NCBI GenBank assembly: GCA_028279685.1
Contig: JANQNG010000059.1
Span: 26,945-90,944, forward strand
Source: Candidatus Nanoarchaeia archaeon
Lineage (GTDB): Archaea; Nanobdellota; Nanobdellia; Woesearchaeales; SKIA01
Length of the DNA stretch: 64,000 nt
Reading direction: 5' to 3'
Shown: positions 13,346 to 59,121 of the stretch, piece after piece
Position numbering within the stretch: position 1 is the stretch's first letter
Layout: the number at the start of each line of letters is the position of its first letter
Notes under the pieces: generated by a model
The model's input: the letters and a program-made list of their open reading frames with translations, nothing else
Told to the model about the DNA's origin: nothing
Database searches by the model: none
Position numbers and translations under genes: made by a program

Positions 13346-13446
13346 GCGCATTACTGCCCAGCGCAGTGTTCTATTTCTTATGCTATTATGCGTGAAAATA
13401 GATATCGAACATCGTATAGATGTAGAAACGGAGCGCAGTAATGCGT
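13346..13446. repeat. Palindromic cGNAg element A
   Basis: GCGCATTACTGC-CCA-GCGCAGT-N61-CGGAGC-GCAGTAATGCGT. Confidence 0.8.
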
Positions 13447-13499
13447 AACTGTATCGGTTCTTGATAATAAATGAAAAAGAAAGAGAAAAAAGTAAAACT

Positions 13500-14138
13500 T
13501 TAACTTACGGCCATAAAGAGTTCGCCTGTAATTCTCTTATCTACAGAGAATCCTTGGACACGGTAAGGAATGTTCAATCTCATTTTTATCTTCTTACCAA
13601 TATCGGAAGCAGTGATTCCTAATGTTGCTGCAGCATCATTGTTTGGATTATTATCTCCTCCTGATTCTGTTTTACAATGGATGTAGATAACATTAGATGT
13701 TTTTGGAGTTATGCTCACAGTAAGGTTTGCAGTGGATGGATCAGCATCATCATCCATGAAGCAGTATGTTGAGCCTGCGCTGCTTGGATTACCTGTGGCA
13801 TCAGTAAATGCAGGATCATCGAAATCAACTTTTACTAATGAAGAAGTTGAGACAGTATCCAAGGCTGTATCATCACCTGTAACGAAGTTTATTTGTTTAT
13901 CTGATGCAAGTAGATTAGTTAGTGTTAATGTGAAGACTTGATCTCCAGCAGCATCATATCGGACAAGTGATGCGTCTTTCTCACATGGAAGCTCTGCACC
14001 AAATCCGCAGCTTTCTGATATGTATCTGCTTGGGTCTAACACACCAAAGTATGCTAATGCGCCGATCATGACTAGGATAACTAAGAATGCCCAGCCATAG
14101 GTTGCTAAGAATTCTAAAGCAGCTTGACCTTTTTTCAT
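13500..14138 (-). CDS. Class III signal peptide (type IV pilin-like) protein
   Basis: MKKG/QAALEFLATYGWAFLVILVMIGALAYFGV. Confidence 0.88.
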   Translation of the reverse strand: MKKGQAALEFLATYGWAFLVILVMIGALAYFGVLDPSRYISESCGFGAELPCEKDASLVRYDAAGDQVFTLTLTNLLASDKQINFVTGDDTALDTVSTSSLVKVDFDDPAFTDATGNPSSAGSTYCFMDDDADPSTANLTVSITPKTSNVIYIHCKTESGGDNNPNNDAAATLGITASDIGKKIKMRLNIPYRVQGFSVDKRITGELFMAVS

Positions 14139-14315
14139 ATTGTTTCACCTCACCAAATATGTATGGTTATAACTTGTTATGGCAATATCGGAATTGAGGG
14201 TTTATAAATCTTTCTCTTTACAGCGCTTCTAGACATCATAAAGAGAGAACATAGGATGCTGTTTTATTGAAGCTCTAACGTAAATATTTAAAAATAGCTT
14301 ATTTTTCTGATAACC

Positions 14316-14468
14316 ATGGCAGCAAATACATCCATGGTTGGAGATTTGGAGACCTATGAGACTGATTGGAAGAAGGATAGAGCAAAGCATATGTTAAAGA
14401 AAATTCTTTCTTTCAAAGACAGAATACTGCGATTATTTAGAAAGAAAAACACCAAATTAAAATGGTAA
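14316..14468 (+). CDS. Small 50-aa protein coupled to alaX
   Basis: MAANTSMVGDLETYETDWKK...KLKW*; stop overlaps the next ATG (TAATG); TATA upstream. Confidence 0.5.
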   Translation: MAANTSMVGDLETYETDWKKDRAKHMLKKILSFKDRILRLFRKKNTKLKW

Positions 14469-15181
14469 TGCCGAAATACATTGAGGATGCATATTTGAAA
14501 GAATTCGTTACAAAAGTAATTTCTGTCAAAGAGGGCAAATTTGTAGTGTTGGAAGATACTATATTCTATCCAAATAGTGGAGGACAGGTTAATGATGAGG
14601 GTAAACTTATTGCTGCTGATGGTGAAGTCAATGTTATTTTTGTGGGAAAGTTTGGAGGTAGCATTAGTCATCAAGTTGAACCTGAGAATGTTTTGAAGGA
14701 AGGAGATGAAGTTACTTGTGTTCTTGATTGGGATCGCAGATACAAATTAATGAGATCCCACACCGCTGCTCATTTGATAAGTTATTTCATAGAAGAAGAA
14801 ATTGGAGCAAAGATAACTGGCAATCAACTAGGATTGGATAAGTGTCGAATAGATTTTTCTTTGGAGAATTTTGATAAAGAACTTTTGATGAGTTTTGAAT
14901 CAAAAGTTAATGCGCTTATCAAAAAAGGCGGTGAAGTTGAGTCAAAAGTTGTTAATAGAGAAGAAGCTGCAGAAATTTCTACGAAATTATCTGCGTTAGC
15001 TAAAGGATTACCTCCTGAAATAAAGGAAGTCAGATTAGTTGGTGTTAAAGGATTGGTCTTAGAAGCATGCGGTGGAACGCATGTTAAAGATATTAAAGAA
15101 ATTAGCAAGGTCAAATTCATTAAATTCAAGAACGCAGGAGCGAATAATAGAAGAATTTACTTTGAGATTCTTGACGAATAA
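14462..15181 (+). CDS. alaXM: Alanyl-tRNA editing protein AlaX-M
   Basis: TIFYPNSGGQ, HTAAH and CGGTH zinc motifs, GANNRRIY. Confidence 0.92.
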   Translation: MVMPKYIEDAYLKEFVTKVISVKEGKFVVLEDTIFYPNSGGQVNDEGKLIAADGEVNVIFVGKFGGSISHQVEPENVLKEGDEVTCVLDWDRRYKLMRSHTAAHLISYFIEEEIGAKITGNQLGLDKCRIDFSLENFDKELLMSFESKVNALIKKGGEVESKVVNREEAAEISTKLSALAKGLPPEIKEVRLVGVKGLVLEACGGTHVKDIKEISKVKFIKFKNAGANNRRIYFEILDE

Positions 15182-15219
15182 TTTTAAAAAGGCTTTTAGG
15201 ATTCTTTTCACTAACGGAT

Positions 15220-15313
15220 GCCTCCGCAATCAAAATCAGAGATTTTGGGCGGAGGCTCGTTCACTTGCCTCCGTATCAAAGTCTTCGACTTTGGACGGAT
15301 GCTCATTTCATTC
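15220..15313 (+). repeat. Two tandem 47-nt acceptor-stem minihelix units in the tRNA-Thr(GGT) leader
   Basis: Same two unit types as at 12233-12377, in different order. Confidence 0.9.
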
Positions 15314-15431
15314 GCCTCCGTAGCTCAGTGGTTAGACCAAAGCTTGCTAAAGAGCGCTTAGAATTGACTTTGTCTTTTCTCGCTTGACCTTGGTAAGGTA
15401 GAGGTCGCGAGTTCAACTCTCGCCGGGGGCT
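15314..15431 (+). tRNA. tRNA-Thr(GGT) with two introns (15333-15350 D-loop; 15359-15386 anticodon stem)
   Basis: Acceptor GCCTCCG/CGGGGGC; spliced anticodon arm CT^ACC-TTGGTAA-GGTAG; BHB helices AGTG/TGCT and AGCG/CGCT; 72 nt mature. Confidence 0.92.
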
Positions 15432-15497
15432 TCTCTTTATAAAAAGATGATATTTTAGGAGAAAGATTAATATAGTTGATGTTGATCTCAGCATTGT

Positions 15498-15980
15498 ATG
15501 GGATGTAATTGTAACGTAGATTTTGAAAAGCTCTCCAGAGATGTTGTACCTTCTTTTGCAATTCACTTTGACTATAAAGATGGTGAAGAATTTCCTTATA
15601 CGGCCTCATACAGTGGAGATATAATGCCGTATATGAAACTTCCAGATCGAGAAGGAGAAATTAGAAATGTTGGGGGTGTAGGACTTGATTTCCTTCTTGG
15701 CAATGTTATGAGCAATATTAGTCAAATGTTTGGATATACAAAACTGAGTTCCAAGGAGGCAATAACATTTTCTAATAAACTGGAATTGACTTTTTCGGAG
15801 AAGATTGACAAAGGTTCTAGAGTAATTGCTAAGAAAACTTTGAAAACGTATATTCGTGAGTATCAAGGAAGGAACTTTAGCAGACTAGGCGAAAATGGAG
15901 AGAAAATTACATCAATGCCTGAAATGCTCTGTGTAAGGAGAGTTTTTTATCCTCTCAAGGAGAAATATAGTGTTCTTTAA
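15498..15980 (+). CDS. Hypothetical protein
   Basis: 160-aa ORF, no motif recognised. Confidence 0.55.
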   Translation: MGCNCNVDFEKLSRDVVPSFAIHFDYKDGEEFPYTASYSGDIMPYMKLPDREGEIRNVGGVGLDFLLGNVMSNISQMFGYTKLSSKEAITFSNKLELTFSEKIDKGSRVIAKKTLKTYIREYQGRNFSRLGENGEKITSMPEMLCVRRVFYPLKEKYSVL

Positions 15981-16956
15981 ACGGGAAGAAATTCAGTTTA
16001 TGTTCTTTTAATATGAGCAAAGAATCGTAGTTTATTATATTTTCAGTAAATTTATTCCTTAATTTGAGCATAAAGCTATGGAATTCGTAGACATTATTAA
16101 CTTCTATATCTAGTTCATAATTCCAAGAACCCATCATCCTTACAACATCCATAACGCATTCAGTTGATTTAGCATATTCGTTAAATGCTTGTTCTTCTTT
16201 TTCTGAGAAAAACCGCGTGTTTAGCAGTATTTTGTAGTAGGTTATTCCAATAAGTTCTTTGTTTAGGATTATTGTAGATCCTTCAATTATGTTTTGTTCT
16301 ATTAGTCTTTTCATTCTGGTGGTAATTTTATCCACACTACATCCTATTTCCCTTGCTATTTCTGTAATTGGTTTTCTTGCGTCTGCACATAATGAAGTTA
16401 AAATCTTTACTTCGTATTCATCAAGATTATATTTTTCTGGTTCAGCACCCCAGTAAGGACTCGCTGTTCCATCTCTTTTTGTATCTGTGAGATATGATTT
16501 TTTCAAATGAGATACATCGATGTAGTTTAGAGGAGTTATTTCTCTAATATATTTGCTGTAATTTCTATTTATTTCATTTAACAATTGATATGCATGAACA
16601 TTATTTCTTGAAACAGGTGCTATAACGATATCATAAGTTCCTTCGCATGTAGCAACCCAAACAATAAATGGATGATTTACGAAGTCTTGAACTATATTTT
16701 GTAGTTTTTCAGCAGTTACATTTTGAAGTTTGATGTAAAATTTGTATGCGACATATCCTAATTTTGGTCCATTAACGAATAATAGTGTTTGTTCTATTAT
16801 TTTACGTTCAATAAGCTTATCTATTCTGTATTTTACGGCCTGCTTTGTGAGGTTAACTTTCTTAGCAATCATTGAAAGGCTAGCTCTTGCATCAAGATCT
16901 AATTCATAGAGTATTTTTCTATCCTTTGAAGTTAGTTTAACAATGTTCTTGGCCAT
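15955..16956 (-). CDS. Double-domain Lrp/AsnC transcriptional regulator
   Basis: Two HTH-RAM units (DRKILYELDLDAR..; KILTSLCADARKP..; GTYD / GSWNYE). Confidence 0.9.
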   Translation of the reverse strand: MAKNIVKLTSKDRKILYELDLDARASLSMIAKKVNLTKQAVKYRIDKLIERKIIEQTLLFVNGPKLGYVAYKFYIKLQNVTAEKLQNIVQDFVNHPFIVWVATCEGTYDIVIAPVSRNNVHAYQLLNEINRNYSKYIREITPLNYIDVSHLKKSYLTDTKRDGTASPYWGAEPEKYNLDEYEVKILTSLCADARKPITEIAREIGCSVDKITTRMKRLIEQNIIEGSTIILNKELIGITYYKILLNTRFFSEKEEQAFNEYAKSTECVMDVVRMMGSWNYELDIEVNNVYEFHSFMLKLRNKFTENIINYDSLLILKEHKLNFFPFKEHYISP

Positions 16957-17064
16957 AATATTTACAAAATATTGTTTTTTTTATAAATTTTCCGTTTTTG
17001 TAAAAATTTTTAATGAAAAGTTTAATAAATGCCAAATTACTATCAAGTAGTTACAAATAGGTGA

Positions 17065-17778
17065 ATGAGAATGAGAGTAATAAAACCAGAATTTCCAGTA
17101 AAAGAACTAATTCAAGATAATCAGGGAACTTATGCTATTTTCGGTCCAAAAAGGTACAGAAAGAATTTAGAAGAAATGAGTGAAGATTTCTCTCATCCAA
17201 TAACAGGGGAAAAAATATCATTCAGACCAGCTACAACTTCTGAATCTATTAGGATTGCTTCTGATGGTTTTGGAGAAGATGGAGAATTTGATGCTAAAAA
17301 AGACATTCATGATTCAAGGTGGAATCAAACAGGTTATATTGTAAGAACTCCAGAAGGAGTATTCACAAATACACAAGAATTAGATGAAAAAACATTAATG
17401 AATATGTTAAATAAAGCAGAAAAAGTTAATGGAATTTATTTAATTAATGATACTATAGCTTTTGCACCTTATGAATCCTTTAAAATAAACATTCATGACG
17501 GAGAGGCAGGAGTGGAATTATTTACCCAAGGAGGACTAGCAAGAGCATTAGAACATACTAAAGAAAAAACAGCTGAAAATCTAGGAAAAATAGCATCTCA
17601 TTACAAAAGGGCTGGGGTTAATGTTTGTTTTTTTGATGATGTTAAAGAACCTGATTTAAGAGTTTTAGGTCTTGGTTCCAGCGAGAACTCTAAAGGGATG
17701 ATAGTTGGCGACAGCTGGAAGGAAAGCTTTGGGGGTTATGCTTTTGGAGTGTTAGAAAACTACGAAGAGGGTAAATGA
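17065..17778 (+). CDS. Hypothetical protein, DGR-target-like family A
   Basis: FRPATTSES, EGVF, C-terminal LRVLGLGS...GGYAFGVL; NNC-rich 3' end. Confidence 0.6.
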   Translation: MRMRVIKPEFPVKELIQDNQGTYAIFGPKRYRKNLEEMSEDFSHPITGEKISFRPATTSESIRIASDGFGEDGEFDAKKDIHDSRWNQTGYIVRTPEGVFTNTQELDEKTLMNMLNKAEKVNGIYLINDTIAFAPYESFKINIHDGEAGVELFTQGGLARALEHTKEKTAENLGKIASHYKRAGVNVCFFDDVKEPDLRVLGLGSSENSKGMIVGDSWKESFGGYAFGVLENYEEGK

Positions 17779-18545
17779 AAATGGCTGGAATACAATTAAT
17801 ATCAAAGAATATACAATCCCCATTAATATCATTCTTAGATAAAGAAGATATATTAAAAGGATATCAAGAAAAAATACAAAAATTCAATGAAAAAGCAAGA
17901 AAAACATTAGATATATTTACTTTTAATGATGGAGTAATAAAAGGTTCAAATGCTTTTGCAAATCAATTATTAACAAAGGATTTAGCTTCTCCAGCAGAAG
18001 TTCTTCAAGCTTCAGAAATAAATCCAGAATATTTCAGAGGATTTTATGTAGATTTAGGCAGTATGTTAAGAACAAATGGAGATTCATATAAAAATAATAA
18101 TCATCTTTCTAAAAATTTATTTAAAGAATTAAAGGCAAGAAACATAATCCCAACATCTGAAGAACCTGTAATGATATGGAACAAAGGATTAATGTCTATA
18201 GATAGTAAAAGTGGAGACAATCCATATGGATTAATATACAGATTAACAGATGATGATTCAATGATAATTCAAGATCATGGATTTAGTCATGAATTTAATG
18301 GAAGACAATTTCTTGAAGTTGATGAAAGATGTGTTCCGAAATACCTTACAGAAGATGAAATTCAAGAATTATCTCAGGGTAAGAAAGCCAAACTAAAAAC
18401 ATTCTATGCGAGAAAAGACGGCCTGTCTGGGTTCTTTTTGAACTGGGACGGGGACTTGATTTCCAGCAGCGGGGATCTTGCTGTCTCCTATTCCATTGGT
18501 AGGATTCATGTCGTAAAAAATTCTAAAGGGGGTAAAACAAAATGA
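17775..18545 (+). CDS. Hypothetical protein, DGR-target-like family B
   Basis: C-terminal GLSGFFLNWDGDLISSSGDLAVSYSIGRIHVV with a sharp GC/NNC-codon shift. Confidence 0.65.
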   Translation: MKMAGIQLISKNIQSPLISFLDKEDILKGYQEKIQKFNEKARKTLDIFTFNDGVIKGSNAFANQLLTKDLASPAEVLQASEINPEYFRGFYVDLGSMLRTNGDSYKNNNHLSKNLFKELKARNIIPTSEEPVMIWNKGLMSIDSKSGDNPYGLIYRLTDDDSMIIQDHGFSHEFNGRQFLEVDERCVPKYLTEDEIQELSQGKKAKLKTFYARKDGLSGFFLNWDGDLISSSGDLAVSYSIGRIHVVKNSKGGKTK

Positions 18546-19234: not shown

Positions 19235-19249
19235 AGAAAAAAGAGGTAA

Positions 19250-24049: not shown

Positions 24050-24071
24050 AAGCTTAAGAGCAGAGATTGCT

Positions 24072-27425: not shown

Positions 27426-27466
27426 TGAAACACCTCTTTTGTTGTATGAATAATTTTTGTGCTGAA

Positions 27467-27560
27467 GCAGTACCTCCCAGCGAAGCAATCTTTTTGCTTT
27501 TCCGATGAATATAATTGGATGATTCAACGAATTGCATATTGGGGCGTAGCGAGGTACTGC
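27467..27560. repeat. Palindromic cGNAg element D
   Basis: GCAGTACCTC-CCA-GCGAAGC-N58-CGTAGC-GAGGTACTGC. Confidence 0.8.
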
Positions 27561-27582
27561 CTTAATATGATTTTTTTTATTG

Positions 27583-27687
27583 AGTAACATTACTGCGCTT
27601 CGTATCAAGGCTAGGATCCCGAAAAGGAATCTAATTCGCCACAAATTGACGAGGTACTCGAGTACTTCGCAAGGCAGTAATGTTACT
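27583..27687. repeat. Palindromic cGNAg element C (opposite orientation to D)
   Basis: AGTAACATTACTGC-GCTTCG-N61-ACTTCGC-AAG-GCAGTAATGTTACT. Confidence 0.82.
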
Positions 27688-28036: not shown

Positions 28037-28948
28037 ATGGTCCATATAGTGAAGAAGCAAGTAAGTGGGAAACTTCATTATTACTTATCTGCGAGCTACA
28101 GAGATGATGGAAAGCATTACAAAAAAGAGAAGTATATTGGAACAAAGCTTCCAAAAAAAGACAAATTAGACTCTCTCAAGGAACAATTTGAATTACAACA
28201 TAACCTAGAACTTTGTAAAAAGTACAAGATTATTGTTCTAAGGAAAAATGAATTAGAAACAATAGAAAAAGTGAAATTGCATTATCATAGCAATCTCAGG
28301 AAAATACCAAAGAGCATTCTCGAAGATTATTACAAACCATTTGTAATAAATTTCACCTACAACACACATGCTATAGAAGATTCAAAATTATCATTTCATG
28401 AAACAAGAGCATTGCTTAATGATGGCGTTCCCGCAAACAAACCGTTTGATGACCAAATTGAGGCGAAAAATCATAAAAGAGTATTCAATGAATTGCTCAG
28501 AACAAAGCAAGATCTTTCATTGCGATTGATATACAGATGGCATAAATTATTATTCAAAGACACGAAGAACGAAGTAGCAGGTAAATTGAGAAACTGGAAT
28601 GTTGCTGTAGCGCACTTCAAAGCACCTCATTATGTAGACATTCCGAAATTATTGAATCAATTTATTGAATGGTATAAAAAAAATAAGAGAAAATATCATC
28701 CTGTTGAGTTCGCTGCATTAACGCATCTCAAATTCGTTAAAATTCATCCGTTTGGAGATGGCAATGGGAGAATAGCAAGATTATTGATGAATTTTGTATT
28801 GTTGAAAAAACATTATCCTTTATTATCCGTACAGTACGATGATAGATTGAATTACTACAAAGCATTAGATAAATACGATGAAACACAAGAGGAAGAAGTA
28901 TTTCTAAAATATATTGTAAAAGTTTATTTGAAAGAAATAGTTACTTAG
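28037..28948 (+). CDS. Fic-domain protein
   Basis: HPFGDGNGRIAR Fic motif; FTYNTHAIE. Confidence 0.93.
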   Translation: MVHIVKKQVSGKLHYYLSASYRDDGKHYKKEKYIGTKLPKKDKLDSLKEQFELQHNLELCKKYKIIVLRKNELETIEKVKLHYHSNLRKIPKSILEDYYKPFVINFTYNTHAIEDSKLSFHETRALLNDGVPANKPFDDQIEAKNHKRVFNELLRTKQDLSLRLIYRWHKLLFKDTKNEVAGKLRNWNVAVAHFKAPHYVDIPKLLNQFIEWYKKNKRKYHPVEFAALTHLKFVKIHPFGDGNGRIARLLMNFVLLKKHYPLLSVQYDDRLNYYKALDKYDETQEEEVFLKYIVKVYLKEIVT

Positions 28949-31259
28949 CTGTTGTTCGCTTCTTTTCTTCATCTAACTTCATCTGGCGTTTTCTCACTTC
29001 GCGTTGTAGCCACTCATTCCATTCGAAGAAGATACGATCATTATCGACTTTGCTTGTTTCTGTTTTAACTTTATCAACAATTTTATGCATCATATCATTG
29101 CAAAGAATAGTAAATTCAGCTTCTAATAATTCATCATCTTTTGTTTGTTCCCATATCTTCACTTGTGCTTCTTTGCATTTTGCACGAAGCATGATGTTCT
29201 GCCAGGTTGCGTCCCAGTTGCCAGCCCATTCTTTTACATTGCCAGCAACTGCTTTAATCACTTCAGTTTCTCCATTGATTAACTCAGCAGTAGCTTTCAA
29301 TTCATCAGTTTTAGGATCGTACTTCATCAGATCAAGAAAACCTCCTTCAAGATTTGGATCATTGGTCCAATCTTTTCTCACTTCAGTAATTTGCGTTACT
29401 CTTCTGATCTTATGAATACCATCTGCAGATTTAATTGGATTCACAATAATACAAATATCCGTCGCTTTGAATGATGTTTTAGGAACGCCGATATCATTTA
29501 CTACACGATCAAAAATGCCGTATGGACTATCTCCATGAATAGTGCCTGCAACAACATTAGCAGCAGCACCTACACGCATTGCTTCGTACAATGCTTTTGC
29601 TTCACCTGATCGTACTTCACCAACAATCAACGCAGAATCTCCCAGGCGTAAAGTACTTCTTATTCCGTCTTCTGCAGTCATCTCTCCAGTGTTCTTTGAT
29701 AATGCAGCGGCTACTTTCATCGGTTGAACGTTGAAACCTAGTTTTCGCATAGCATTCGTTGGTAATTCTAATGTATCTTCAATAGTTAAAATACGATGAC
29801 GTCTCATGATTTCAATCAATACAGCAGACAATAATGAACTCTTTCCAGAACTTCGCGTTCCACAGATTAACATAGTACGGGTTCCATCAACAAGAAAACT
29901 CAATAATCCAGCAGCTAACGGTGTTATTGTTTTGTATTTGATAAACAAAGGTAATGTCCAGGGACGGTCACGGTGCCTTCGAAAAGAGAACGCTAATCCA
30001 GTAGGATCCAGAGGATAAGTAATAGCAGAGACTCTCACTGATGCGCCGGGCAATTCTAATTCAGTATCGAGTAAAGGATTTGCTTCATCTAATGGTCTTC
30101 CTGAAATCAAACGTAGTTTTGAAGCCCAGCTTTCCGTTTCCATCTTTGTAGGAAAAATATTGGTTTTACAATCATCATAGTCTGCATGTACAATGAACAA
30201 AGGAATCTGTCCAGCAGGACTATTCACTGAAATGTCTTGCATCTTTTCATCTTCTAATAGTACTTCAATCAGCCCGAATCCTACTGTGTATCGCACTAAG
30301 ATTTTAGCTAATGTATCAAGATCTTTTGGTGTCATCTTAATGCGTTTATATCGTGCAAGCTCATCAAGTAAATCTTTTCCTACATTGTAGAAGACCTCTC
30401 TCATTCTTTTTGGATCAACAAATTCTTGTTTCTCAGGTTTATGTTCCGATAATATTCTCCTTGCAGTATCAAGTATCTCGTATTTATCCTCATCAAGTTT
30501 GAATTCAGGAGGAGTCACATGATACAAGTATTGCACAGTATCAGGAAGTTCAAATATCACTACTTCTGTTTCTCCCACATTATAGTTAGCAATTTCCTTT
30601 CCGTGTTCAGGATACTGAGCCATAAGTCTTGTGAACATGAAATCGGGTTTTATGGAAGGAGAGAAAAGTTGCCTATAGACTGATCGATCATCATCTTTAT
30701 ATCCGGAGATTTTATCTTCGAGCAGAAAAATAATTCTTAGTCGTTCCATCTGATGCCTGAGCTCTTCAAGCACGTCAATATATTTATTGAGATATTTACT
30801 CTCTTCAGCATCTTGAAGCTTGTCTAAACGTATCTTCTCTCTTCTGATGTGTCTCGTCAGTTCTACATATGAGCCTACAGGATCCTTTTTCATCGTGTCG
30901 ATGATAGTCTGCAGCGCATTAAACCAGCTTGCAACCCATCGTTCGCATTTTTTGTCGAAATTCAGGGCATTATAGCTGTACGTGTCTTTGTCTCGTTCAG
31001 CTAAGGAGACTAGCTCAGCTACTTCAATCAGCATTTGTACTTGAGGATAATCATATTCATAATCTTGTTTCTGGGCGAAGCTGATTTTTGTGATGCCTTT
31101 GTTTTGGATGAGTTTATCAATAACTAAGGCCATACATTGCGGAGTATCCTCTATTGAAGGGACCATACTCCATTCCTCCGCATTGAACCGCAGAATTGTT
31201 TCTTCCTGTTCGCGGATGACCTCGTAACTAGGCTTTTTTTTACCCCCAAACAGCACCAT
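28941..31259 (-). CDS. Type II/IV secretion (pilus assembly) ATPase
   Basis: Walker A GTRSSGKS, IEDTLEL, LRLGD..IVGEVR, GTIHG. Confidence 0.93.
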   Translation of the reverse strand: MVLFGGKKKPSYEVIREQEETILRFNAEEWSMVPSIEDTPQCMALVIDKLIQNKGITKISFAQKQDYEYDYPQVQMLIEVAELVSLAERDKDTYSYNALNFDKKCERWVASWFNALQTIIDTMKKDPVGSYVELTRHIRREKIRLDKLQDAEESKYLNKYIDVLEELRHQMERLRIIFLLEDKISGYKDDDRSVYRQLFSPSIKPDFMFTRLMAQYPEHGKEIANYNVGETEVVIFELPDTVQYLYHVTPPEFKLDEDKYEILDTARRILSEHKPEKQEFVDPKRMREVFYNVGKDLLDELARYKRIKMTPKDLDTLAKILVRYTVGFGLIEVLLEDEKMQDISVNSPAGQIPLFIVHADYDDCKTNIFPTKMETESWASKLRLISGRPLDEANPLLDTELELPGASVRVSAITYPLDPTGLAFSFRRHRDRPWTLPLFIKYKTITPLAAGLLSFLVDGTRTMLICGTRSSGKSSLLSAVLIEIMRRHRILTIEDTLELPTNAMRKLGFNVQPMKVAAALSKNTGEMTAEDGIRSTLRLGDSALIVGEVRSGEAKALYEAMRVGAAANVVAGTIHGDSPYGIFDRVVNDIGVPKTSFKATDICIIVNPIKSADGIHKIRRVTQITEVRKDWTNDPNLEGGFLDLMKYDPKTDELKATAELINGETEVIKAVAGNVKEWAGNWDATWQNIMLRAKCKEAQVKIWEQTKDDELLEAEFTILCNDMMHKIVDKVKTETSKVDNDRIFFEWNEWLQREVRKRQMKLDEEKKRTTAK

Positions 31260-52443: not shown

Positions 52444-52531
52444 TGAGAGTTAATAAATATTCTCTTTCAAAAAGCCCTAAAATCAACATAATAATACCAA
52501 TATTTAAATATATCAGAAAATTCCTAAAATC

Positions 52532-52948
52532 ATGTTTGTTTACAGTCCTGGAATTCAAGCTTCTGAAATGAAGAGAGTAAATGAGATTACAAAGGCCAGA
52601 AACATTATGTCTGCCATGAGTTATTTTGATCTTTTTTCGAATATTGAGCAATATAAAAAGTGGAGAGCTAAACCATTTTTGAAAAGGTGGATGGATGTTT
52701 ACTTATGTGAATCTCCATCTGAAATTAATTATACTGCGGCTAAGCTTGAATTGACAAAGAGACCTTTGTCTCATTTATCAAAAAAAGAATTAGTTGATTT
52801 TAAGGAAATTCTTGAAGAAAAATGTGATCATAAATTATTTTCAAAAAAAGATTTTCATATTGATTATCTTGTAAGCAGAGTTCGTGAAATAGAAGAGCAT
52901 GGTAATGATAGAATTCCAGTGCCTTTTCCTATGTTAGAATTTGCTTAA
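52532..52948 (+). CDS. Hypothetical protein
   Basis: 138-aa ORF with upstream TATA. Confidence 0.55.
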   Translation: MFVYSPGIQASEMKRVNEITKARNIMSAMSYFDLFSNIEQYKKWRAKPFLKRWMDVYLCESPSEINYTAAKLELTKRPLSHLSKKELVDFKEILEEKCDHKLFSKKDFHIDYLVSRVREIEEHGNDRIPVPFPMLEFA

Positions 52949-53985
52949 TTAACCCTAAAATCCGCGCACACTCTCCATGTTCTAGGTGCGTGTTGTCCGC
53001 ACTTGTGGAGTTTGTAGTGTTTGTAGTGCACTTCTGCTCGTTCGCAGGCTTTCTTGACGTGTTCTTCTGCTAAGCCAAAATCTTTCTCATGTAAGAACAT
53101 ATACAAATGTATCCAGGTTCCTTTATCAGCAACAGATATAGCATCGTCTAAGAAATCAGGTGCATTCTTCGGAGCAGGCATCACAATACGATCATATTTC
53201 TTATGCAGTGTAGGTATCACTTTGTGCACATCGCCACAAACTAAGAAAGCGTTTTTTATTTTATTTAATGCAATATTTTTTAATCCATATTCATGGCCAA
53301 TAGGATTTACTTCTATTCCTGAAACATGAGCTGCTTCAGTATTTTTTGCGATCACACAAACAAACGGTGCTGCACCAGAAAACATAACAAGTACTTCCTC
53401 TCCTTTTTTGACTAATTGAGAAATTCTTTTTCTTTCTGTAGATAAGCGAATAGAATAATATACTTGCTCAACATCAACCAGCATACGAATGCCGTTCTCG
53501 ATCACTTGTGTTTCCTTTGTCTTCTCTCCTGCAAGCCATTTCATCTTCTGAGTTCTGAATTGGCCTTCATGAGCATCATCTTTTCTTAGCACAGTATCAA
53601 CATGCTTGGTCATATTCAATAATGTTTCTGCAATCACTTTCTCATATTTCCTTTGTTCAGGATCAATTTCAACAATGGCGATACTTCCTACGGTATCAAA
53701 AGCTGTTTTAATATTAGGGAGAACATCGTCAGGGATCTTGCCTTGTAAAGCTTCACCAAGATTTTTAGGACTTTTTCCCCTAACTTCGTTTGCTTTACGT
53801 TCCTCAAAGCTCACTTTGATTTTATTTTTTTTAGCTAACTCCTTCACTTTGTCTTCATCTAACACAGCAACTAGGAAGCCATCATCTTCTTTTGTCCAAC
53901 GGACATCAGTATTAACGAGTTCAGCCTCTATAAGCTTCTTCCTCAGTGATTCAGCATGCTTTAAAGGTATTTTGACGAATTGCAT
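52945..53985 (-). CDS. trm5: Trm5/Taw2-family tRNA-modifying SAM-dependent transferase
   Basis: FDTVGSIA, VYYSIRLSTER, MFSGAAPF, YDRIVMP, RVCADF. Confidence 0.85.
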   Translation of the reverse strand: MQFVKIPLKHAESLRKKLIEAELVNTDVRWTKEDDGFLVAVLDEDKVKELAKKNKIKVSFEERKANEVRGKSPKNLGEALQGKIPDDVLPNIKTAFDTVGSIAIVEIDPEQRKYEKVIAETLLNMTKHVDTVLRKDDAHEGQFRTQKMKWLAGEKTKETQVIENGIRMLVDVEQVYYSIRLSTERKRISQLVKKGEEVLVMFSGAAPFVCVIAKNTEAAHVSGIEVNPIGHEYGLKNIALNKIKNAFLVCGDVHKVIPTLHKKYDRIVMPAPKNAPDFLDDAISVADKGTWIHLYMFLHEKDFGLAEEHVKKACERAEVHYKHYKLHKCGQHAPRTWRVCADFRVN

Positions 53986-54026
53986 AAGAATGGAAAGAAA
54001 GAAGGGTTAATAAATATAGTTACTTT

Positions 54027-54515
54027 TCATAACTGTTTTTTTACCCAATCTATAAGATCTTTTGTGACGAATAAGGAAGAATCAAGATATAACTTATTAA
54101 GGATTTTTTTGGTTTCTTTTATTGTTATGAGCTTCATCGCATAAGCTCTTGTTATTATACCTATGGTGCCGTGCACTTTAAATCCTAAATGTTTTCCAAT
54201 GCTTCTTGCTTCTAAGTCATCTGTAAGAAACAATTTGATTTTTTCTTGTTTTCCAAGCGCTATTGCTGCTGATTCTCCAGCACCCAAGCCATATTTATGT
54301 TGGATTGATTTGGCAATATCTTTTGATCTTCCATTTAATTTTACAACAGAAAGTTGAGGCATATCTCTTTTGTTAAAGTTATGTTTCTTTATTTCTTTAT
54401 GTACTTCAGGTGGAATAATGACGCTTTTGACTGTTCTCAAAAGATGTAGGGCACAAACTTCTTTAAGATGAATAAGGGGCCCTGCATCAAGAACAACTAA
54501 GCTAATCTTTTTCAT
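54027..54515 (-). CDS. PIN-domain toxin (DUF3368/VapC-like)
   Basis: VVLDAGPLIHL, GESAAIAL, LTDD..AR, GTIG. Confidence 0.88.
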   Translation of the reverse strand: MKKISLVVLDAGPLIHLKEVCALHLLRTVKSVIIPPEVHKEIKKHNFNKRDMPQLSVVKLNGRSKDIAKSIQHKYGLGAGESAAIALGKQEKIKLFLTDDLEARSIGKHLGFKVHGTIGIITRAYAMKLITIKETKKILNKLYLDSSLFVTKDLIDWVKKQL

Positions 54516-54696
54516 GAAGTCCCCACATCACATCTTCTTTTATTGCAGTTTCAAGTTTTTCTGATTTTGTTCGACGAACAAGTTCTCGTACAGCATCTCG
54601 TATTAATTCGCTCTTGTTAGCATACCATCCTTCTCGTATTAACTCTTCCGATTCGAGCACAAGTTTTTCTGTCATTTTCGCTGGTACTGTAATCAT
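54502..54696 (-). CDS. Ribbon-helix-helix antitoxin
   Basis: GWYANKSELIRDAVR. Confidence 0.88.
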   Translation of the reverse strand: MITVPAKMTEKLVLESEELIREGWYANKSELIRDAVRELVRRTKSEKLETAIKEDVMWGLHEKD

Positions 54697-54708
54697 AGTA
54701 TCACCAAA

Positions 54709-54728
54709 AGTATTACTATGGTAATACT
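54709..54728. promoter_or_regulatory. Palindromic operator of the RHH-PIN TA pair
   Basis: AGTATTAC-TATG-GTAATACT between TATA and start codon. Confidence 0.65.
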
Positions 54729-54934
54729 ATTTAAAGTTTTGGGTTATTATCTATTTTTGGTCTTTAAGCATTTTTTTTGCTCGTATTACTGTTATTTTAG
54801 GATCTTTTAATTATTCTTCCCAATGAAATTCGGATATTTTGCGATCTAATCCGTGATGTTTTTATAATTAATATTTATAGCTTATAAAGGCTAAAAATAG
54901 AAATATTTAAATAGATGTTTAAATTTGCAGTATT

Positions 54935-55243
54935 ATGACAAAAACAGCTTTTCTTGAGGCATTTGGAGATACTCCAACACTCAGAGTATTGGATTTTCTT
55001 GTGGTAAATGAAGATTTTGATTACAGTATGACTGATATAGCTAATCTTTCTAAGGTGGGTTATGCAACATTGAAGTTGTTTTGGAAGAAATTAGAAAGGA
55101 ATAAAATAGTGGAGCAAACAAGGACAGTGGGTAGGGCAAAAATGTATTCATTAAACAACACCAATCCTGTTGTCAAAAAATTCAGAGATTTCTATTGGAC
55201 AGCAACAAAGGTGAAGATACGTGAAAAAGAAATTCTTGCTTAA
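54935..55243 (+). CDS. wHTH transcriptional regulator
   Basis: FGDTPTLRVLDFL..DYSMTDIA...TRTVGRAKMY. Confidence 0.8.
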   Translation: MTKTAFLEAFGDTPTLRVLDFLVVNEDFDYSMTDIANLSKVGYATLKLFWKKLERNKIVEQTRTVGRAKMYSLNNTNPVVKKFRDFYWTATKVKIREKEILA

Positions 55244-55330
55244 AGCAACAATAACGCAATACCTGCAATCATAATGACTGCGAAGATGGCTTTTTCCAAT
55301 ACTTTATGATCATGGAACAATACAATAGTA

Positions 55331-55675
55331 TTATTGATAAACGAGATTAGCGTAAGATAACTCTGGAAGTGTCGTATAATAGAATTTGTTTTTTTGAGTT
55401 TGTACGTAATTGACTATGTCTCTATCATTTGTTTTTTTAGAAAGAGATTTGTGTAGTCTTTCCATAAAATTATCAAATAACGGGATTGTAGGTATTTCGG
55501 TAACTCCTGTTTGATATTTTTTATCATTTTCTAATTCTTGAAGTATCTGAGGTGAATTCTGCTCAATAAAATGTGCAATTCTTTTATTGTATTCTTCTGT
55601 TATTTGATTTGTTAGCTCCATTGTAATATGAGGTTCTTTGGAAATTATAAATTTTGTGAATTTATAGCAAGCCAT
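55331..55675 (-). CDS. Hypothetical protein (island cargo)
   Basis: 114-aa ORF overlapping the PRTase-like gene end. Confidence 0.55.
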   Translation of the reverse strand: MACYKFTKFIISKEPHITMELTNQITEEYNKRIAHFIEQNSPQILQELENDKKYQTGVTEIPTIPLFDNFMERLHKSLSKKTNDRDIVNYVQTQKNKFYYTTLPELSYANLVYQ

Positions 55676-56837
55676 TTAAATTGTTTCTTACCACGTTTTT
55701 TAGCACCCTCTCTATATACCTTAGTTTAGATACTGGTTTTATTGCTAATTCATCATAGTTTATTTTTCGTTCTACTTCCATATCTGTTATTCTTTCAATG
55801 GCTGCGACTTCTATATTCCCTGAATATTCTTTCAACATCTCTTTAATATCAAAAAGAGTGTTGCCTGAGAAAACATTATCATCAACAACCATAATTCTTT
55901 TTCCTATAAGTTCATTAGTTTCACCGATTATTTGTTGCGGGATATATTTTTTTATGGTAGATGGAGAATCATCTTCCCCATATCTTGAATATTTTATAAG
56001 AAAAATATTGTTAATTTTTTCTATATTTTTTATTGAATAAATTGATTTCAACGCATATCCTATTTCAAGAGCACCATATAAAGGATTAACGACAAAATCA
56101 ATCATGTCAGTTTTGTCTTGTCTTAATAATTGACCTGCAAATAATAATATCTGCATGGGATGATCCATTTCTCTTATTAACATTTTTCTTGCTGCAGGTT
56201 CTCCCTCTGGTTTAAATTCAGTTGGATCTTTTGCTTTTGGGAAAATTATTCTTTTTTGGAATATATCAATAATTTCCTCGGAAAAACTACTTTGTTCACC
56301 TAATTCTTGAGTTAATAAGAATTGGTAATAATTTGATATGTCTTTAACACAGTTATTCTTCGCTTCTTCATATAATGACAAATCTAATTCTTTATCTAGC
56401 ATGTGGAAAAAGAATGAATTAAATATTGCCATGTCATAATGTTTTTTATGGTCTAAAATACTGCTCAAAAGAAGTTTTGATTCTAAAGTATCAGCGTAAT
56501 CTGAATTTATATCCATAATTACTTCACTAACTTCGTTAAGATATTTTGTCATAAGAGGAAGAACTTTGTCAAGATTATCTTTTTCAATGATGTTCAAATA
56601 ATATTTTTTTGATCTGAGATATGTTGTTCCATTATTTTTGTTACTTATGCTTTCCAAATATTTTTTTATTCTATTAGGGAATTTATCTAATTGTTTGTTA
56701 AATGAATTCTCTGATATTTTGATTCCGCCAGCATAGTCATAATATTTTAACATTTTTAGAATCTCTTTTGTTTCTTTCGGTGTAAATAAATTATTGAGAA
56801 AGGTAGAAGGAGTTTCTAGATAAGCTATTTCTGGCAT
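55662..56837 (-). CDS. Protein with C-terminal phosphoribosyltransferase fold
   Basis: IMVVDDNVFSGNTL PRPP-binding loop; NPLYGA. Confidence 0.7.
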   Translation of the reverse strand: MPEIAYLETPSTFLNNLFTPKETKEILKMLKYYDYAGGIKISENSFNKQLDKFPNRIKKYLESISNKNNGTTYLRSKKYYLNIIEKDNLDKVLPLMTKYLNEVSEVIMDINSDYADTLESKLLLSSILDHKKHYDMAIFNSFFFHMLDKELDLSLYEEAKNNCVKDISNYYQFLLTQELGEQSSFSEEIIDIFQKRIIFPKAKDPTEFKPEGEPAARKMLIREMDHPMQILLFAGQLLRQDKTDMIDFVVNPLYGALEIGYALKSIYSIKNIEKINNIFLIKYSRYGEDDSPSTIKKYIPQQIIGETNELIGKRIMVVDDNVFSGNTLFDIKEMLKEYSGNIEVAAIERITDMEVERKINYDELAIKPVSKLRYIERVLKNVVRNNLNGLL

Positions 56838-56895
56838 ATTGTTGTTATTGTATGTTTATTTATAAAAGTTTCTTTTTTTAACTACTTATAAGTGC

Positions 56896-57777
56896 TCAAA
56901 GCAACAATAACGCAATACCTGCAATCATAATGGCTGCGAAGATGGCTTTTTCCAATACTTTATGATCATGGAACATTTCATGACCGAAAAAGACATCAAA
57001 TAATGAAGAAACTCTCAGGATTAATCCTGCAATGGCAATTTCTATTACTTTTATGCCTTCGAAATAAAGAAACAAACCTGCATTAAGGCAAACAGCAGCA
57101 AATAATGAATCTTTCCAATCTTTGAATCCTGCTTTAATATCTTGCCAACCATTGAATTTCCATAAAACTAGAATTATCATATTTATCAACATAGCAACCC
57201 TTGTGAAAAATAGAATATCAAAGGAATTCATTGGAGGGATAGATAATCCTAATGATGAAGGAAAAAGGAGTGCTTTGTCAAAACCATAAAGAATAGCAAA
57301 GATTGCTGCAGCAATTAAAAAATGTTTTATGTTGGGATTTTTGAGTATCTGATTTAGCTTGAATTGATGATGTATGAATGATTCCATGAAGTAGAAGGAT
57401 CCAAGAATCAAGATTGCTCCAAATGTTTGTTTCACATCAAGGTGTTCACTAAATATCAATACCCCGACAAGAAGAACAAATAATGGTTGAATAGATGTTA
57501 TTGGTCCAAATTCGGATAATTCTGTCTCTTGAATTGTCTTCATAAAAAAATAGTATCCTGTTGTTGCGAGAATTCCATAAATTACAAGTATTATCCAGAT
57601 TTGGAGAGGATAGTTAAAACTTAGATTTTTAATAAATGGGAGAAGTGTTATCACGACGAAAAACTGTGCGGAAATAATGAACTGAATAGTTTTTTCCCGA
57701 TTTGTTCCTCGCTTGACGAATACATCATATAACGCGAATACTAATGCTGCGAGAATTAATAGTATGTACCCGTTCAT
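56896..57777 (-). CDS. EamA/DMT family transporter
   Basis: About 10 TM segments; two EamA halves. Confidence 0.85.
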   Translation of the reverse strand: MNGYILLILAALVFALYDVFVKRGTNREKTIQFIISAQFFVVITLLPFIKNLSFNYPLQIWIILVIYGILATTGYYFFMKTIQETELSEFGPITSIQPLFVLLVGVLIFSEHLDVKQTFGAILILGSFYFMESFIHHQFKLNQILKNPNIKHFLIAAAIFAILYGFDKALLFPSSLGLSIPPMNSFDILFFTRVAMLINMIILVLWKFNGWQDIKAGFKDWKDSLFAAVCLNAGLFLYFEGIKVIEIAIAGLILRVSSLFDVFFGHEMFHDHKVLEKAIFAAIMIAGIALLLL

Positions 57778-57798
57778 ATGCCACCTCTTTTATAGAGT

Positions 57799-58947
57799 TT
57801 ATTTAACAGCTTCCTTATAAATTTTTTTCAAATCTGCTTTTCGTTTTTTCTCAGAGAACTTTGTTTCAATCAATTTCTTAGAAGCAGCCTGCATCTTCTT
57901 CAGTAACTTCTTATCTTTGATCAATTTTTCCATAGGTTTCTTTAGTCTTTTAATCATAGAAGGATCTTCGACAGAAGAGTAGAATGATTCCTTATTCTGC
58001 TTTGGATCAACGGTGAAATATTCATCTTTCAGACTATAATCCTTATTGTACATATACAAAGGAGCTTTCACTAAATAGCCATTATCATTAATAAATTCAG
58101 GGATGGCATAAACATCAGTGGAAATGATGGCCATATTATTTGCCAGGGCTTCAAGATAGACTAATCCGAAGCTATCTTGTAATGTTGGCTGGACAAAAAC
58201 ATCCACCTTTGAGAAAAACTTTCTATATAATTCTTCTTTCGAAAATTTTGCTGGAAAGAATTTAATTCTTTTATTATTTTTATAAGTTGCAAGATACAGG
58301 GAAGGAGTATTCGATACTATCCAAAGTTCTATGTTCTTGTATCTCTTAGATAATTGATCGAACGCTTCAATAACCCATTTTGTACCTTTCATATAGAATT
58401 TTGTGTTACAGCAGAGAAAGATGGTTTTCTTAGGATCTTTCTTCATTTTTTTGTTCGGTTTTACATAAGGATAAATAACTGCAAGCTTCTTTTTAATAAC
58501 AGCATCTTTGAATGTGCTGATCATCGATTTTTTCGCAGCTTCTGAAATGCAGATAATCTTCTTACAGTATTTTGATTTCAATAATGATTTTATCAATGTT
58601 CCTCCAATTGCACTTTTTAATATTTTAAGGCTATAGAATGATAGGCAAGCAGGATTATCAATTTCAACTACATAAGGAATTTTATTGAGCAGTAATTGAC
58701 CAGGAGTATGGACAAGATCAATGTTTTTCACATCTTTCAGAAAGCGAATATTTGGAATACGAAGAAAATCTATCATCTTAAGCAAAGGGAGAGTGGAGTC
58801 TTTTTTCTTTCGTATGGATATCTTATGGTCTGGCTTCATGGCATTAACAGGAACAAGGGTTTCATATTTGATTCCCTTAGGAGGATGCAGAATGGTTTCT
58901 CTTCTTCTTTGCCTCAGACTTTTTCCAGCATAGAGTACTTTGATCAT
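57799..58947 (-). CDS. GT4 family glycosyltransferase
   Basis: KG, DVFVQPT..DSFGLVYLEAL, IPEFI..NGYL. Confidence 0.9.
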   Translation of the reverse strand: MIKVLYAGKSLRQRRRETILHPPKGIKYETLVPVNAMKPDHKISIRKKKDSTLPLLKMIDFLRIPNIRFLKDVKNIDLVHTPGQLLLNKIPYVVEIDNPACLSFYSLKILKSAIGGTLIKSLLKSKYCKKIICISEAAKKSMISTFKDAVIKKKLAVIYPYVKPNKKMKKDPKKTIFLCCNTKFYMKGTKWVIEAFDQLSKRYKNIELWIVSNTPSLYLATYKNNKRIKFFPAKFSKEELYRKFFSKVDVFVQPTLQDSFGLVYLEALANNMAIISTDVYAIPEFINDNGYLVKAPLYMYNKDYSLKDEYFTVDPKQNKESFYSSVEDPSMIKRLKKPMEKLIKDKKLLKKMQAASKKLIETKFSEKKRKADLKKIYKEAVK

Positions 58948-59024
58948 GGGGATGTGAAGAGATGAGATTATTTAAATGTGATGGGCGGTTAAGATATTCA
59001 GATATGCTATATTATTCATGATAC

Positions 59025-59121
59025 GCACCACTGCGCTTCGTGTTATATGCGCAATTTAATAGATCCTTCGCGGTTATAACAATTCTATATATGTTTAGAG
59101 TACTTCTCTAGGTAGTAGTGC
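59025..59121. repeat. Palindromic cGNAg element B (degenerate)
   Basis: GCACCACTGC-GCTTCG-N61-ACTTCTC-TAG-GTAGTAGTGC. Confidence 0.7.

Follow-up and report, generated by a model that had tools for sequence, protein, structure and literature searches.

Background

Among repeats of the kind described here, REP and REPIN sequences and their RAYT enzymes in bacteria are described as abundant extragenic palindromes that are defined by structure and show compensated stem changes, that form doublets in fixed relative orientation, lie between housekeeping genes with enrichment at gene ends and leave no target duplication, all of which recurs in the present family; the partner enzyme can be a single-copy, domesticated one instead of a multicopy IS. 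The roughly 100-bp MITEs, for instance Correia, ERIC and RUP in bacteria and the SM-type MITEs of Sulfolobus, are of similar size to the present element; like it, they end in inverted repeats, lie between genes in tens of copies, insert into one another and are patchily distributed. The folded integron attC site, with its basal stem, extrahelical bases on one strand, internal loop and variable distal part, is similar in that structure rather than sequence is conserved, that the distal part varies in length and that folding of a single strand is implied. IS200/IS605 elements, whose derivatives include PATE-type elements, likewise use irregular ssDNA hairpins near their ends as recognition features and leave no target duplication. 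Small-genome archaea of the DPANN type are thought to be highly streamlined. A published census (PMC11602168) includes a woesearchaeal genome with very high MITE density.

Here we describe a so far undescribed family of hairpin repeats, about 100 bases long, of some tiny-genome (DPANN-like) archaea, which is most likely a selfish mobile DNA element. It was noticed in a first-pass annotation, made from the letters alone, of a window of 64,000 nucleotides of a Candidatus Nanoarchaeia archaeon (Woesearchaeales), the window being the whole stretch of DNA that was analysed.

Results and discussion

Four copies in the window

Covariance model R1 matches the window at the four places where the element had first been reported, with E-values from 4e-17 to 1e-12, and the next match in the window has E = 0.047. 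For the two minus-strand copies, parts are listed in plus-strand coordinates and their sequences as complements.

13346-13446, plus strand: copy 1, 101 nt (73.3 bits, E 3e-16)
Parts of copy 1: 5' arm 13346-13357; CCA bulge 13358-13360; GCGCAGT 13361-13367; 60-nt core 13368-13427; ACGGAGC 13428-13434; 3' arm 13435-13446
27465-27562, plus strand: copy 2, 98 nt (76.7 bits, E 4e-17)
Parts of copy 2: 5' arm 27465-27476; CCA 27477-27479; GCGAAGC 27480-27486; 57-nt core 27487-27543; GCGTAGC 27544-27550; 3' arm 27551-27562
27585-27685, minus strand: copy 3, 101 nt (74.0 bits, E 2e-16)
Parts of copy 3: 3' arm 27585-27596; ACGAAGC 27597-27603; core 27604-27663; GCGAAGT 27664-27670; CTT bulge 27671-27673; 5' arm 27674-27685
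59023-59123, minus strand: copy 4, 101 nt, degenerate (59.2 bits, E 1.1e-12)
Parts of copy 4: 3' arm 59023-59034; ACGAAGC 59035-59041; core 59042-59101; GAGAAGT 59102-59108; CTA bulge 59109-59111; 5' arm 59112-59123

Copy 1, whose core falls in the subfamily with ATGCGTGAAAAT, begins 12 nt beyond the stop codon that closes an ORF at 12753-13334. In copy 2 the covarying Y:R pair discussed below is C:G. This copy is antisense to a minus-strand gene ending at about 27425 and lies upstream of it, some 40 nt from its likely start; copies 2 and 3 are arranged tail-to-tail, with a 22-nt spacer between them. Copy 4 is flanked by a glycosyltransferase gene (57799-58947, minus strand) and an ORF (59172-59699, plus strand) whose N-terminus is pilin-like; it has GAGAAGT in place of GCGAAGT, a C-to-A change, and one wobble and one mismatch in its stem. 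The first-pass annotation was silent on this degeneracy and on the reverse orientation of copies 3 and 4.

Copy number and distribution

The family is far larger than the four copies first reported. The covariance-model scan of the genome and its relatives that had been suggested at that stage finds 78 copies in the window's own genome (G000, 1.9 Mb) and further ones in 9 of the 150 other genomes sampled from its order; for the order sample as a whole the count is 10 of 151, including G000 and the unpublished G117. In a second genome of that sample (G128, 1.12 Mb), nhmmer matches give 72 copies, and the family occupies about 7 kb of about 130 kb of intergenic DNA. The density in these two genomes comes to roughly 40-65 copies per Mb, spread fairly evenly over contigs. 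No copies were found by the covariance model in six genomes of the same family, nor by nhmmer in the fully fetched relative G001, and positive and negative genomes share families, with one of two genomes positive in f123 and in f131 and one of five in f80.

The fold

The unit is 96-103 nt long. The layout first drawn from the window, namely stem, CYW bulge, GCGNAGY, core, RCGNAGC and complementary stem, is kept in 72 near-full-length G000 copies, and the N of GNA is variable, as had been noted, in the 65 anchored ones. The terminal stem measures about 12 bp (10-14), and the arms, which begin with variable bases, are homogeneous in G128 and diverse in G000, where their sequence varies from copy to copy while pairing is kept. 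That the stems differ yet stay paired is reflected in a pairing of 97.7% over 640 cells, as opposed to 79.6% in shuffles, none of 500 of which reaches the observed value, and 15-47% in slid controls. Changes are seen on both sides in 13 of 16 pairs, with double changes in 127 cells, and RNAalifold independently predicts the same 16 pairs. The covariation is Watson-Crick only: wobble pairs are not tolerated, and mismatches do not favour one strand (G.U in about 4 and A.C or C.A in about 6 of the 640 cells). Moreover, G000 copies have diverged to 63% mean column identity with stems still perfect, and two duplicated loci differ by a compensated G-C to A-T change.

Two G-C pairs lie between the CYW bulge, which is in the 5' half of the hairpin, and the GNA motifs, and beyond the latter is a covarying Y:R pair, which is UA in 36 and CG in 4 of 40 copies and unpaired in none; in a set of 65 copies it is T:A in 52, C:G in 8 and T:G in 3. 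In the predicted fold GCGNAGY and RCGNAGC pair with each other, forming a two-fold symmetric 3x3 GNA/GNA internal loop, in which an unpaired N/N is presumably flanked by two sheared G.A pairs. The motifs had initially been taken for cGNAg mini-hairpins, but closure of these would be G.T and A.C in 36 of 40 copies, and the Y:R covariation and the RNAalifold pairs do not support two separate d(GCGNAGC) hairpins. Because the G.A-forming purine loop is confined to one of the two strands, what folds could just as well be a transcript, a point against reading the element as DNA.

Comparison with known RNA motifs excluded several candidates. A K-turn has a 3-nt bulge directly followed by tandem G.A/A.G pairs, while here the bulge and the G.A positions have two G-C pairs between them; box C/D (C being RUGAUGA and D CUGA) and H/ACA sRNAs were rejected since there are no such boxes at the element ends; and the archaeal bulge-helix-bulge, with two 3-nt bulges on opposite strands 4 bp apart, does not fit GNA triplets that are directly opposite each other and a CYW bulge only 2 bp off. 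A match to a known Rfam family, which had been named as an outcome that would overturn the first reading, was looked for and not found: Rfam 15 at gathering score gives three tRNA matches only in the window, and at the copies, with E up to 10, only chance snoRNA and miRNA rows appear, with nothing at the G128 loci.

One may nevertheless consider a structured non-coding RNA family or module with the same long hairpin, in which a protein would bind to the bulge and GNA/GNA loop and the core would supply a variable segment that may act as a guide or bind protein, the gene copies of the family having multiplied in some lineages. Strong covariation with an RNAalifold consensus, a non-canonical purine loop confined to one strand, a core of fixed length with a conserved central motif (see below), stems kept in diverged copies and a compensated change between duplicated loci would all suit such an RNA. 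Tens of copies are also what archaeal C/D-box sRNA gene families have. On the other hand, it would be an RNA that matches nothing in Rfam, has neither C/D nor H/ACA boxes nor a K-turn, almost lacks G.U pairs and contains a 60-nt core with no conserved helix, and we regard it as an unlikely explanation, for reasons that also include its genomic context (see below).

The core

The first-pass annotation had called the cores fixed in length and unrelated. The length constraint holds in the larger set, with 58-60 nt in 51 of 65 anchored G000 copies (range 53-69) and 59-60 nt in 67 of 68 G128 copies. Their unrelatedness does not: cores can be aligned, split into subfamilies and have a central motif in common, roughly AARAMTCG in G000, GTGACTCC in G128 and GAAGACTCG in G008. 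No conserved helix was found within the core of about 60 nt, and there is little conserved pairing in it. Stems assort independently of cores; loci C24_11409 and C18_174233, for example, have 3 core differences and 5 of 12 stem pairs changed, and C74_17756 and C18_92043 have 4 core differences and 5 stem pairs changed, all stem changes in both comparisons being compensated. Reassortment of stems and cores, or re-templating, would explain such near-identical cores with very different, always complementary arms.

It is here that the specific proposal of integron-attC-like recombination sites, or of scaffolds carrying captured sequences of about 60 nt, can be judged, and we consider it extremely improbable. 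Arms and cores that assort independently, and a loose likeness to the folded attC architecture, are in its favour, but the cores are mutually homologous family members rather than captured foreign 60-mers, and of 46 loci that a pattern search picked out on viral contigs the model confirms none. In addition, copies are single or paired on all contigs and in both orientations, with no R/L boxes and no integrase-family gene beside them, and do not form same-orientation arrays with cassette ORFs, which means that the family is not integron-like.

Genomic context

Genome-wide in G000, and also in G128, copies are intergenic and lie between housekeeping genes of every kind. The position of all four window copies beside type IV pilus genes, on which the first-pass annotation had remarked, is thus an accident of the window. 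Convergent gaps are enriched, 182 of them holding 24 copies, as against 38 copies for 662 co-directional gaps and 7 for 183 divergent ones, and orientation is independent of the genes (sense versus antisense in co-directional gaps, 20 versus 16 in G000 and 22 versus 16 in G128). Nested or compound, abutted and truncated copies occur, and the contig ends C7 and C6 carry copies. In G128 there are at least 10 head-to-tail pairs, at least 7 of them with 0-1 nt between arms, whose members come from different core subfamilies; 13 of 16 adjacent pairs in G000 are tail-to-tail, three are tandem and none is head-to-head. In the G000 flanks neither a promoter-like sequence nor a T-tract recurs at a fixed distance, and no target-site duplication is visible; in G128, where 41 copies could be anchored precisely, their flanks have direct repeats of 2-5 nt no more often than by chance at any tested offset. 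No empty sites were found, nor was insertion or excision polymorphism seen in assembled contigs of the likely source metagenome. The top strand of the element has no GC-skew bias (positive skew in 41 of 69 and 31 of 71 copies, using 5-kb flanks); in these archaea GC skew may reflect the direction of replication poorly. A bias of this kind might be expected of a lagging-strand mechanism like that of IS200/IS605, and the lack of one is a point against mobility.

For a non-coding RNA, flanks in which neither a promoter nor a terminator stands at a constant distance and random orientation relative to neighbouring genes would be unexpected, absence from all six same-family genomes and most of the order would be odd for a functional class, and nested and abutted copies are hard to account for. 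One could also imagine DNA sites that serve the host, such as cruciform or hairpin sites bound by a protein that organises the chromosome, takes part in replication or marks transcription boundaries, and under selection at each locus. The preference for convergent gene ends, the fairly even density and stems that are Watson-Crick only would agree with this, as would perfect stems next to diverged cores in G000; these stems and the compensated duplicated loci also fit selection for a host-serving structure, which is a point against mobility. Such sites are, however, distinctly unlikely to be the explanation, since the family is missing from close relatives and from most of the order, dimers, nested forms and truncated ends accumulate, the asymmetric bulge and purine loop are sensible only on one folded strand, and no co-occurring protein was found.

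Search for a partner enzyme

A co-occurring recombinase or HUH gene, which the first-pass annotation had proposed to look for, did not emerge. Y1_Tnp (HUH, PF01797) has no match in G000, G008, G098, G128 or G139 and one in G136, with no copy of the element within the 4 kb available around it, and TnpB (PF07282) is absent from five of five genomes tested, including G000 and G128. The 101 neighbouring proteins in G128 include no transposase or integrase families, bar one AAA protein that matches IstB_IS21 weakly. A PD-(D/E)XK protein, present in 47 of 151 genomes, and a Cas4-like protein were rejected as co-occurring partners because the former is missing from 6 positive genomes and the latter from G098. 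No protein family in G000 has more than two members at 60% identity or above, and no arm-matched ends 95-6000 nt apart, other than neighbouring elements, indicate an autonomous copy there, a test limited by MAG incompleteness (91.9%). The missing autonomous element is weak evidence, because MAGs are often without IS copies.

A probable mobile DNA family, with a proposed recognition of its fold

We estimate at about one half the probability that these are non-autonomous, structure-dependent repeat elements, REP/REPIN- or MITE-like, that have spread through the intergenic DNA of some DPANN-like archaea. The general idea of a structure-defined recombination or mobility site, already put forward from the window, gains from the patchy distribution, the nested, abutted and truncated copies, the Watson-Crick covariation and an intergenic placement independent of gene orientation, whereas its hairpin, captured-core and integron-like parts find no support.

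The resemblance to described systems is nonetheless incomplete. REP sequences are 20-40 nt long, whereas the present element has 96-103 nt with a core of about 60 nt, lacks the GTAG/CGTC tag, has doublets whose members come from different subfamilies and resides in archaea, not bacteria, with no Y1 HUH gene in G000 or G128. MITE-like terminal inverted repeats are present as 12-bp complementary arms, but neither a target-site duplication nor a related autonomous IS was found, and the G000 repeats vary yet stay complementary, while in MITEs they are conserved as the sequences to which the transposase binds; the constant bulge and GNA/GNA loop suggest that it is the fold that is recognised. As opposed to IS200/IS605, with one hairpin per end, a single hairpin spans the whole element, its orientation has no skew bias, and TnpA (Y1) and TnpB are absent from high-copy genomes.

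The mechanism of spread is one that we infer. A folded strand, more likely ssDNA than RNA, would be recognised by a trans-acting protein through the invariant bulge and GNA/GNA loop and the central motif; the same putative protein would copy or move the unit, preferring promoter-free intergenic DNA and sites beside existing copies, and stems and cores would be reassorted or re-templated on the way. It is also conceivable, if quite improbable, that the elements are substrates of a putative archaeal structure-specific nuclease or recombinase that reads the CYW bulge and GNA/GNA loop of a folded single strand and either nicks beside the stem and re-templates an arm, in a rolling-hairpin-like manner, or exchanges the cores of about 60 nt between hairpin scaffolds, like cassettes. 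This would explain arms that are always perfectly complementary yet unlinked to cores, and, if true, would amount to a new class of mobile element, borne by a hairpin and lacking a HUH, DDE or TnpB partner.

Conclusions

The family is sharply defined, by an invariant and unusual non-Watson-Crick motif, and comes with no recognisable transposase; this one family of repeats attains a density of 40-65 copies per Mb despite the presumed streamlining of these genomes. Since copies break assemblies, as at the two contig ends, the element should be masked or annotated in MAGs, and covariance model R1 provides a marker for tracing exchange between uncultured lineages. If the elements are RNA, they represent a new abundant class of non-coding RNA; if they are mobile DNA, they point to an unknown structure-specific archaeal enzyme.

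Window copies and family size

The hairpin repeats of the window belong to a large family in this genome (G000; 1.90 Mb in 80 contigs, 35.8% G+C, completeness 91.9%, contamination 4.5%). A strict pattern finds 42 copies there, nhmmer gives 76 matches at E < 1e-5, 72 of them near full length, and a covariance model (R1), trained on 40 of the genome's near-full-length copies, finds 78. The four copies that a first-pass annotation had reported in the window are all placed by R1 (E between 4e-17 and 1e-12); the match that ranks after them in the window has E = 0.047.

Element copies in the window (R1 matches)
13346-13446, + strand: copy 1
27465-27562, + strand: copy 2
27585-27685, - strand: copy 3, reverse orientation
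59023-59123, - strand: copy 4, reverse orientation, degenerate

Copy 4 is degenerate in having GAGAAGT in place of GCGAAGT, in addition to mismatched stem positions.

Anatomy of the element

Sixteen pairs, 12 in the terminal stem and four further in, give 640 cells over 40 copies, of which 97.7% are paired; the figure is 79.6% after column shuffling (none of 500 shuffles came up to the real alignment) and 15-47% with the partners slid. Both sides have changed in 13 of the 16 pairs (127 cells), and RNAalifold, unaided, recovered the identical 16. Wobble is nearly missing, with about four G.U and about six A.C or C.A cells among the 640.

The GCGNAGY and RCGNAGC motifs had been read as two separate cGNAg mini-hairpins. 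That reading, which would leave G.T and A.C closure in most copies, is rejected: the motifs pair with each other in a single internal loop, with G-C, C-G and GNA opposite GNA, followed by G-C and Y:R. Covariation is seen at the Y:R position (36 U:A and 4 C:G in 40 copies; T:A 52, C:G 8, T:G 3 and other 2 in 65). No N/N covariation is seen within the GNA/GNA loop, the G000 combinations including A/A 16, T/G 13 and A/G 9, and Watson-Crick combinations occurring in about 9 of 65. In the bulge, G000 copies have CTA, CCA or CTT, and those of a relative that is also rich in copies, G128, have CAA, CCA or CTA.

Most cores keep close to the constant length noted earlier: 51 of 65 in G000 measure 58-60 nt, and 67 of 68 in G128 measure 59-60 nt. 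The cores themselves, previously taken for unrelated captured sequences, are in fact homologous: they can be aligned, fall into subfamilies and have a central motif common across genomes. Alifold gives no conserved helix in the core, and individual folds are mutually inconsistent.

A structured RNA is a possible explanation for such an element, supported by the strand specificity of the G.A-forming loop and by the maintenance of the stems; the restriction of the arms to Watson-Crick pairs is one of our reasons for favouring instead a selfish, non-autonomous element. Rfam has no match for the window copies or for the G128 loci, and the geometry of the element is unsuitable for K-turn, BHB, C/D or H/ACA readings.

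Genomic setting

Element copies are intergenic. By gap classes based on crude ORF calls, 22 G000 copies lie in convergent gaps and 13 in divergent ones, while co-directional gaps hold 20 sense vs 16 antisense copies. The corresponding figures for G128 are 24, 7, and 22 vs 16, against a background of 182 convergent, 183 divergent and 662 co-directional gaps. Thus, the copies are not linked to the transcribed strand, and they are in excess between convergent genes. Neither an orientation bias relative to local GC skew nor a target-site duplication was found; the bases adjoining the arms are A or T.

The first-pass annotation had also associated the copies with type IV pilus-related genes. This link is local chance, since the window neighbours are diverse (among them a secretion-type ATPase, a Fic protein, glycosyltransferases, RNase J and an ORF whose N-terminus is pilin-like) and those in G128 are housekeeping genes, such as fibrillarin, aminoacyl-tRNA synthetases, PolB, GINS and ribosomal proteins. 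Among 101 G128 neighbour proteins there were no transposase or integrase families, save for a weak IstB_IS21 match in a single AAA protein.

Two other features of the window may be recorded here. A Fic/DOC-domain gene (28037-28948, +) and the gene for a 772-aa T2SSE ATPase (28941-31259, -) overlap tail-to-tail by 8 nt. Three tRNA genes probably contain introns, given the 89-130 nt lengths of their Rfam matches, which suggests an archaeal genome; ARAGORN recognises only one of the three, with an odd four-base anticodon reading (gtaa).

tRNA matches in the window (Rfam)
2948-3077
12378-12466
15314-15431

Distribution among genomes

A covariance-model scan of the genome and its relatives, as had been proposed, extends the family well beyond the 78 copies of G000: in the order sample 10 of 151 genomes are positive, G000 and the unpublished G117 included (9 of 150 without G117). 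The relatives have genomes of 0.6-2.1 Mb and fall into more than 130 families within one order; the hosts are probably DPANN-like. None of six same-family genomes has a copy, and nhmmer found none in the whole genome of G001 (960,688 nt). The phylum-level sample added no further positive genomes, and in it negative genomes occur within the families of positive ones.

Element copies per genome in the other positive genomes
G008: 73
G128: 72 (nhmmer, whole genome)
G136: at least 22
G098: 11
G139: 11
G117: 4
G011: 2
G018: 2
G085: 1

A collection of genome contigs contained at least 118 pattern loci. Twelve among the loci listed were scored with R1, which confirmed six, with eight matches in all, in three records: G128, another MAG and a 'Nanoarchaeota' SAG. 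The public record of G128 is titled 'uncultured Methanosarcinales archaeon'; the genome, of 1.1 Mb, is placed in the order of G000 and the title is probably wrong. In viral contigs, 46 pattern loci were found and R1 confirmed none, indicating chance matches only.

Clustering, compound copies and accompanying repeats

Of 16 adjacent pairs in G000, 13 are tail-to-tail, three tandem and none head-to-head, although some sit on duplicated contigs and hence are not independent; two further tail-to-tail pairs occur among weaker R1 matches. In G128, head-to-tail pairs number at least 10, and in seven or more of them the arms are separated by 0-1 nt. Members of these G128 pairs belong to different core subfamilies, and therefore represent adjacent insertions, not duplications. 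Some copies are compound, their 5' arm being separated from the bulge by an insertion of extra hairpins or of whole elements. Truncated left ends and an internally deleted copy are also seen.

A second palindromic family in G128, which we call repeat X (~113-128 nt, arms of ~19 nt, an inner C-GTA-G mini-hairpin), has no Rfam match. It lies 0-42 nt downstream of nine element copies, invariably in the same orientation (for example L061:16903-17030). In G000, a short motif with a consensus near CTCTGTAGAAATGC is found 15-40 nt upstream of several copies.

Flanks with the motif in G000
C24:111904
C24:112111
C79:96069
C79:95862
C18:97311
C40:4388

Some G000 loci are near-duplicates (~91-100% identity) that carry the same element copies: C74:25230-25650 vs C35:5020-5330, and C24:111904-112111 vs C79:95862-96069. 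They probably reflect two strains binned together (contamination 4.5%), and within one such pair a stem position shows a compensated G-C to A-T change. Contigs C7 and C6 each end 11 nt from an element copy. The nested cluster at C74:25230-25650 lies inside a six-gene syntenic cluster (G000 C74:24171-33818; G128 C1:234071-243187) that is absent from G001 and encodes an 1850-aa protein in G128.

Arms versus cores

Arms and cores vary independently of each other. G128 combines almost invariant arms with differing cores; in G000 nearly identical cores are found with very different arms, all changes being compensated (three core differences vs 5 of 12 stem pairs changed in one example, four vs five in another), and the same arm types recur beside different core subfamilies. 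Point mutation followed by slow compensation fails to account for this pattern. We infer that the conserved junction motifs may be points at which arms and cores are reassorted, or that one arm may be re-templated from the other. A search for empty hairpin targets (arms with a loop of at most 45 nt) gave none in G000 and a single locus in G128, read on both strands, whose arms are non-complementary.

Search for a partner enzyme and traces of mobility

A co-occurring recombinase or HUH gene, which the first-pass annotation had suggested looking for, did not emerge. Y1 HUH transposases are missing from G000, G008, G098, G128 and G139, and the one in G136 has no element copy within the surrounding 4 kb. 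TnpB is absent from all five genomes tested. G000 has no multicopy genes and no long arm-matched copy that could represent an autonomous element. In contigs of the probable source metagenome, no joint coincides with any copy.

There are 145 G128 proteins that are common to G000 and absent or weak in G001; a Pfam scan took in 103 of 134 proteins from this set. One candidate, a PD-(D/E)XK protein, is encoded by 47 of the 151 genomes; six positive ones lack it, and so it does not co-occur with copies. A Cas4-like nuclease is present in four of the five positive genomes in which it was sought, the exception being G098, which is 99% complete, and a third candidate, of 205 aa, resembles a Peptidase_M50 (membrane-protease-like) fragment. 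Two G128 proteins (L115:9396-10217, +, and L115:11855-12685, -) have bacterial sigma-70 region 2 (and region 4) domains, with a G000 homologue at C23:7328-8212 and none in G001; their presence in these archaeal MAGs could reflect horizontal transfer or a binning artefact.

Interpretation

The evidence favours a selfish, non-autonomous element of which the fold is recognised and not the arm sequence. Besides the Watson-Crick arms, this rests on the patchy distribution combined with indifference to gene orientation, on the avoidance of divergent (promoter) gaps, on the nested and abutted copies, on copies that form homogeneous bursts in one genome and are old and diverse in another, and on the absence of signals for promoters or terminators. 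We consider a host DNA site less likely. From the initial interpretation there thus remains a structure-defined, probably mobile element, stripped of the mini-hairpins, the captured cores and the pilus link.

As for known systems, assignments to integron attC sites and to IS200/IS605 derivatives both failed when tested. The logic of the element is that of REP/REPIN sequences, but it has no RAYT; some MITEs also have this logic, whereas our element lacks both a target duplication and an autonomous relative. One published census (PMC11602168), at least part of which leaves the families undescribed, reports a woesearchaeal genome in which MITEs are very dense. We found no published description of the family in the literature, and the supplementary MITE lists of that census may include it. 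The element is a new, archaeal variant of the extragenic-palindrome/MITE kind, with putative mobility.
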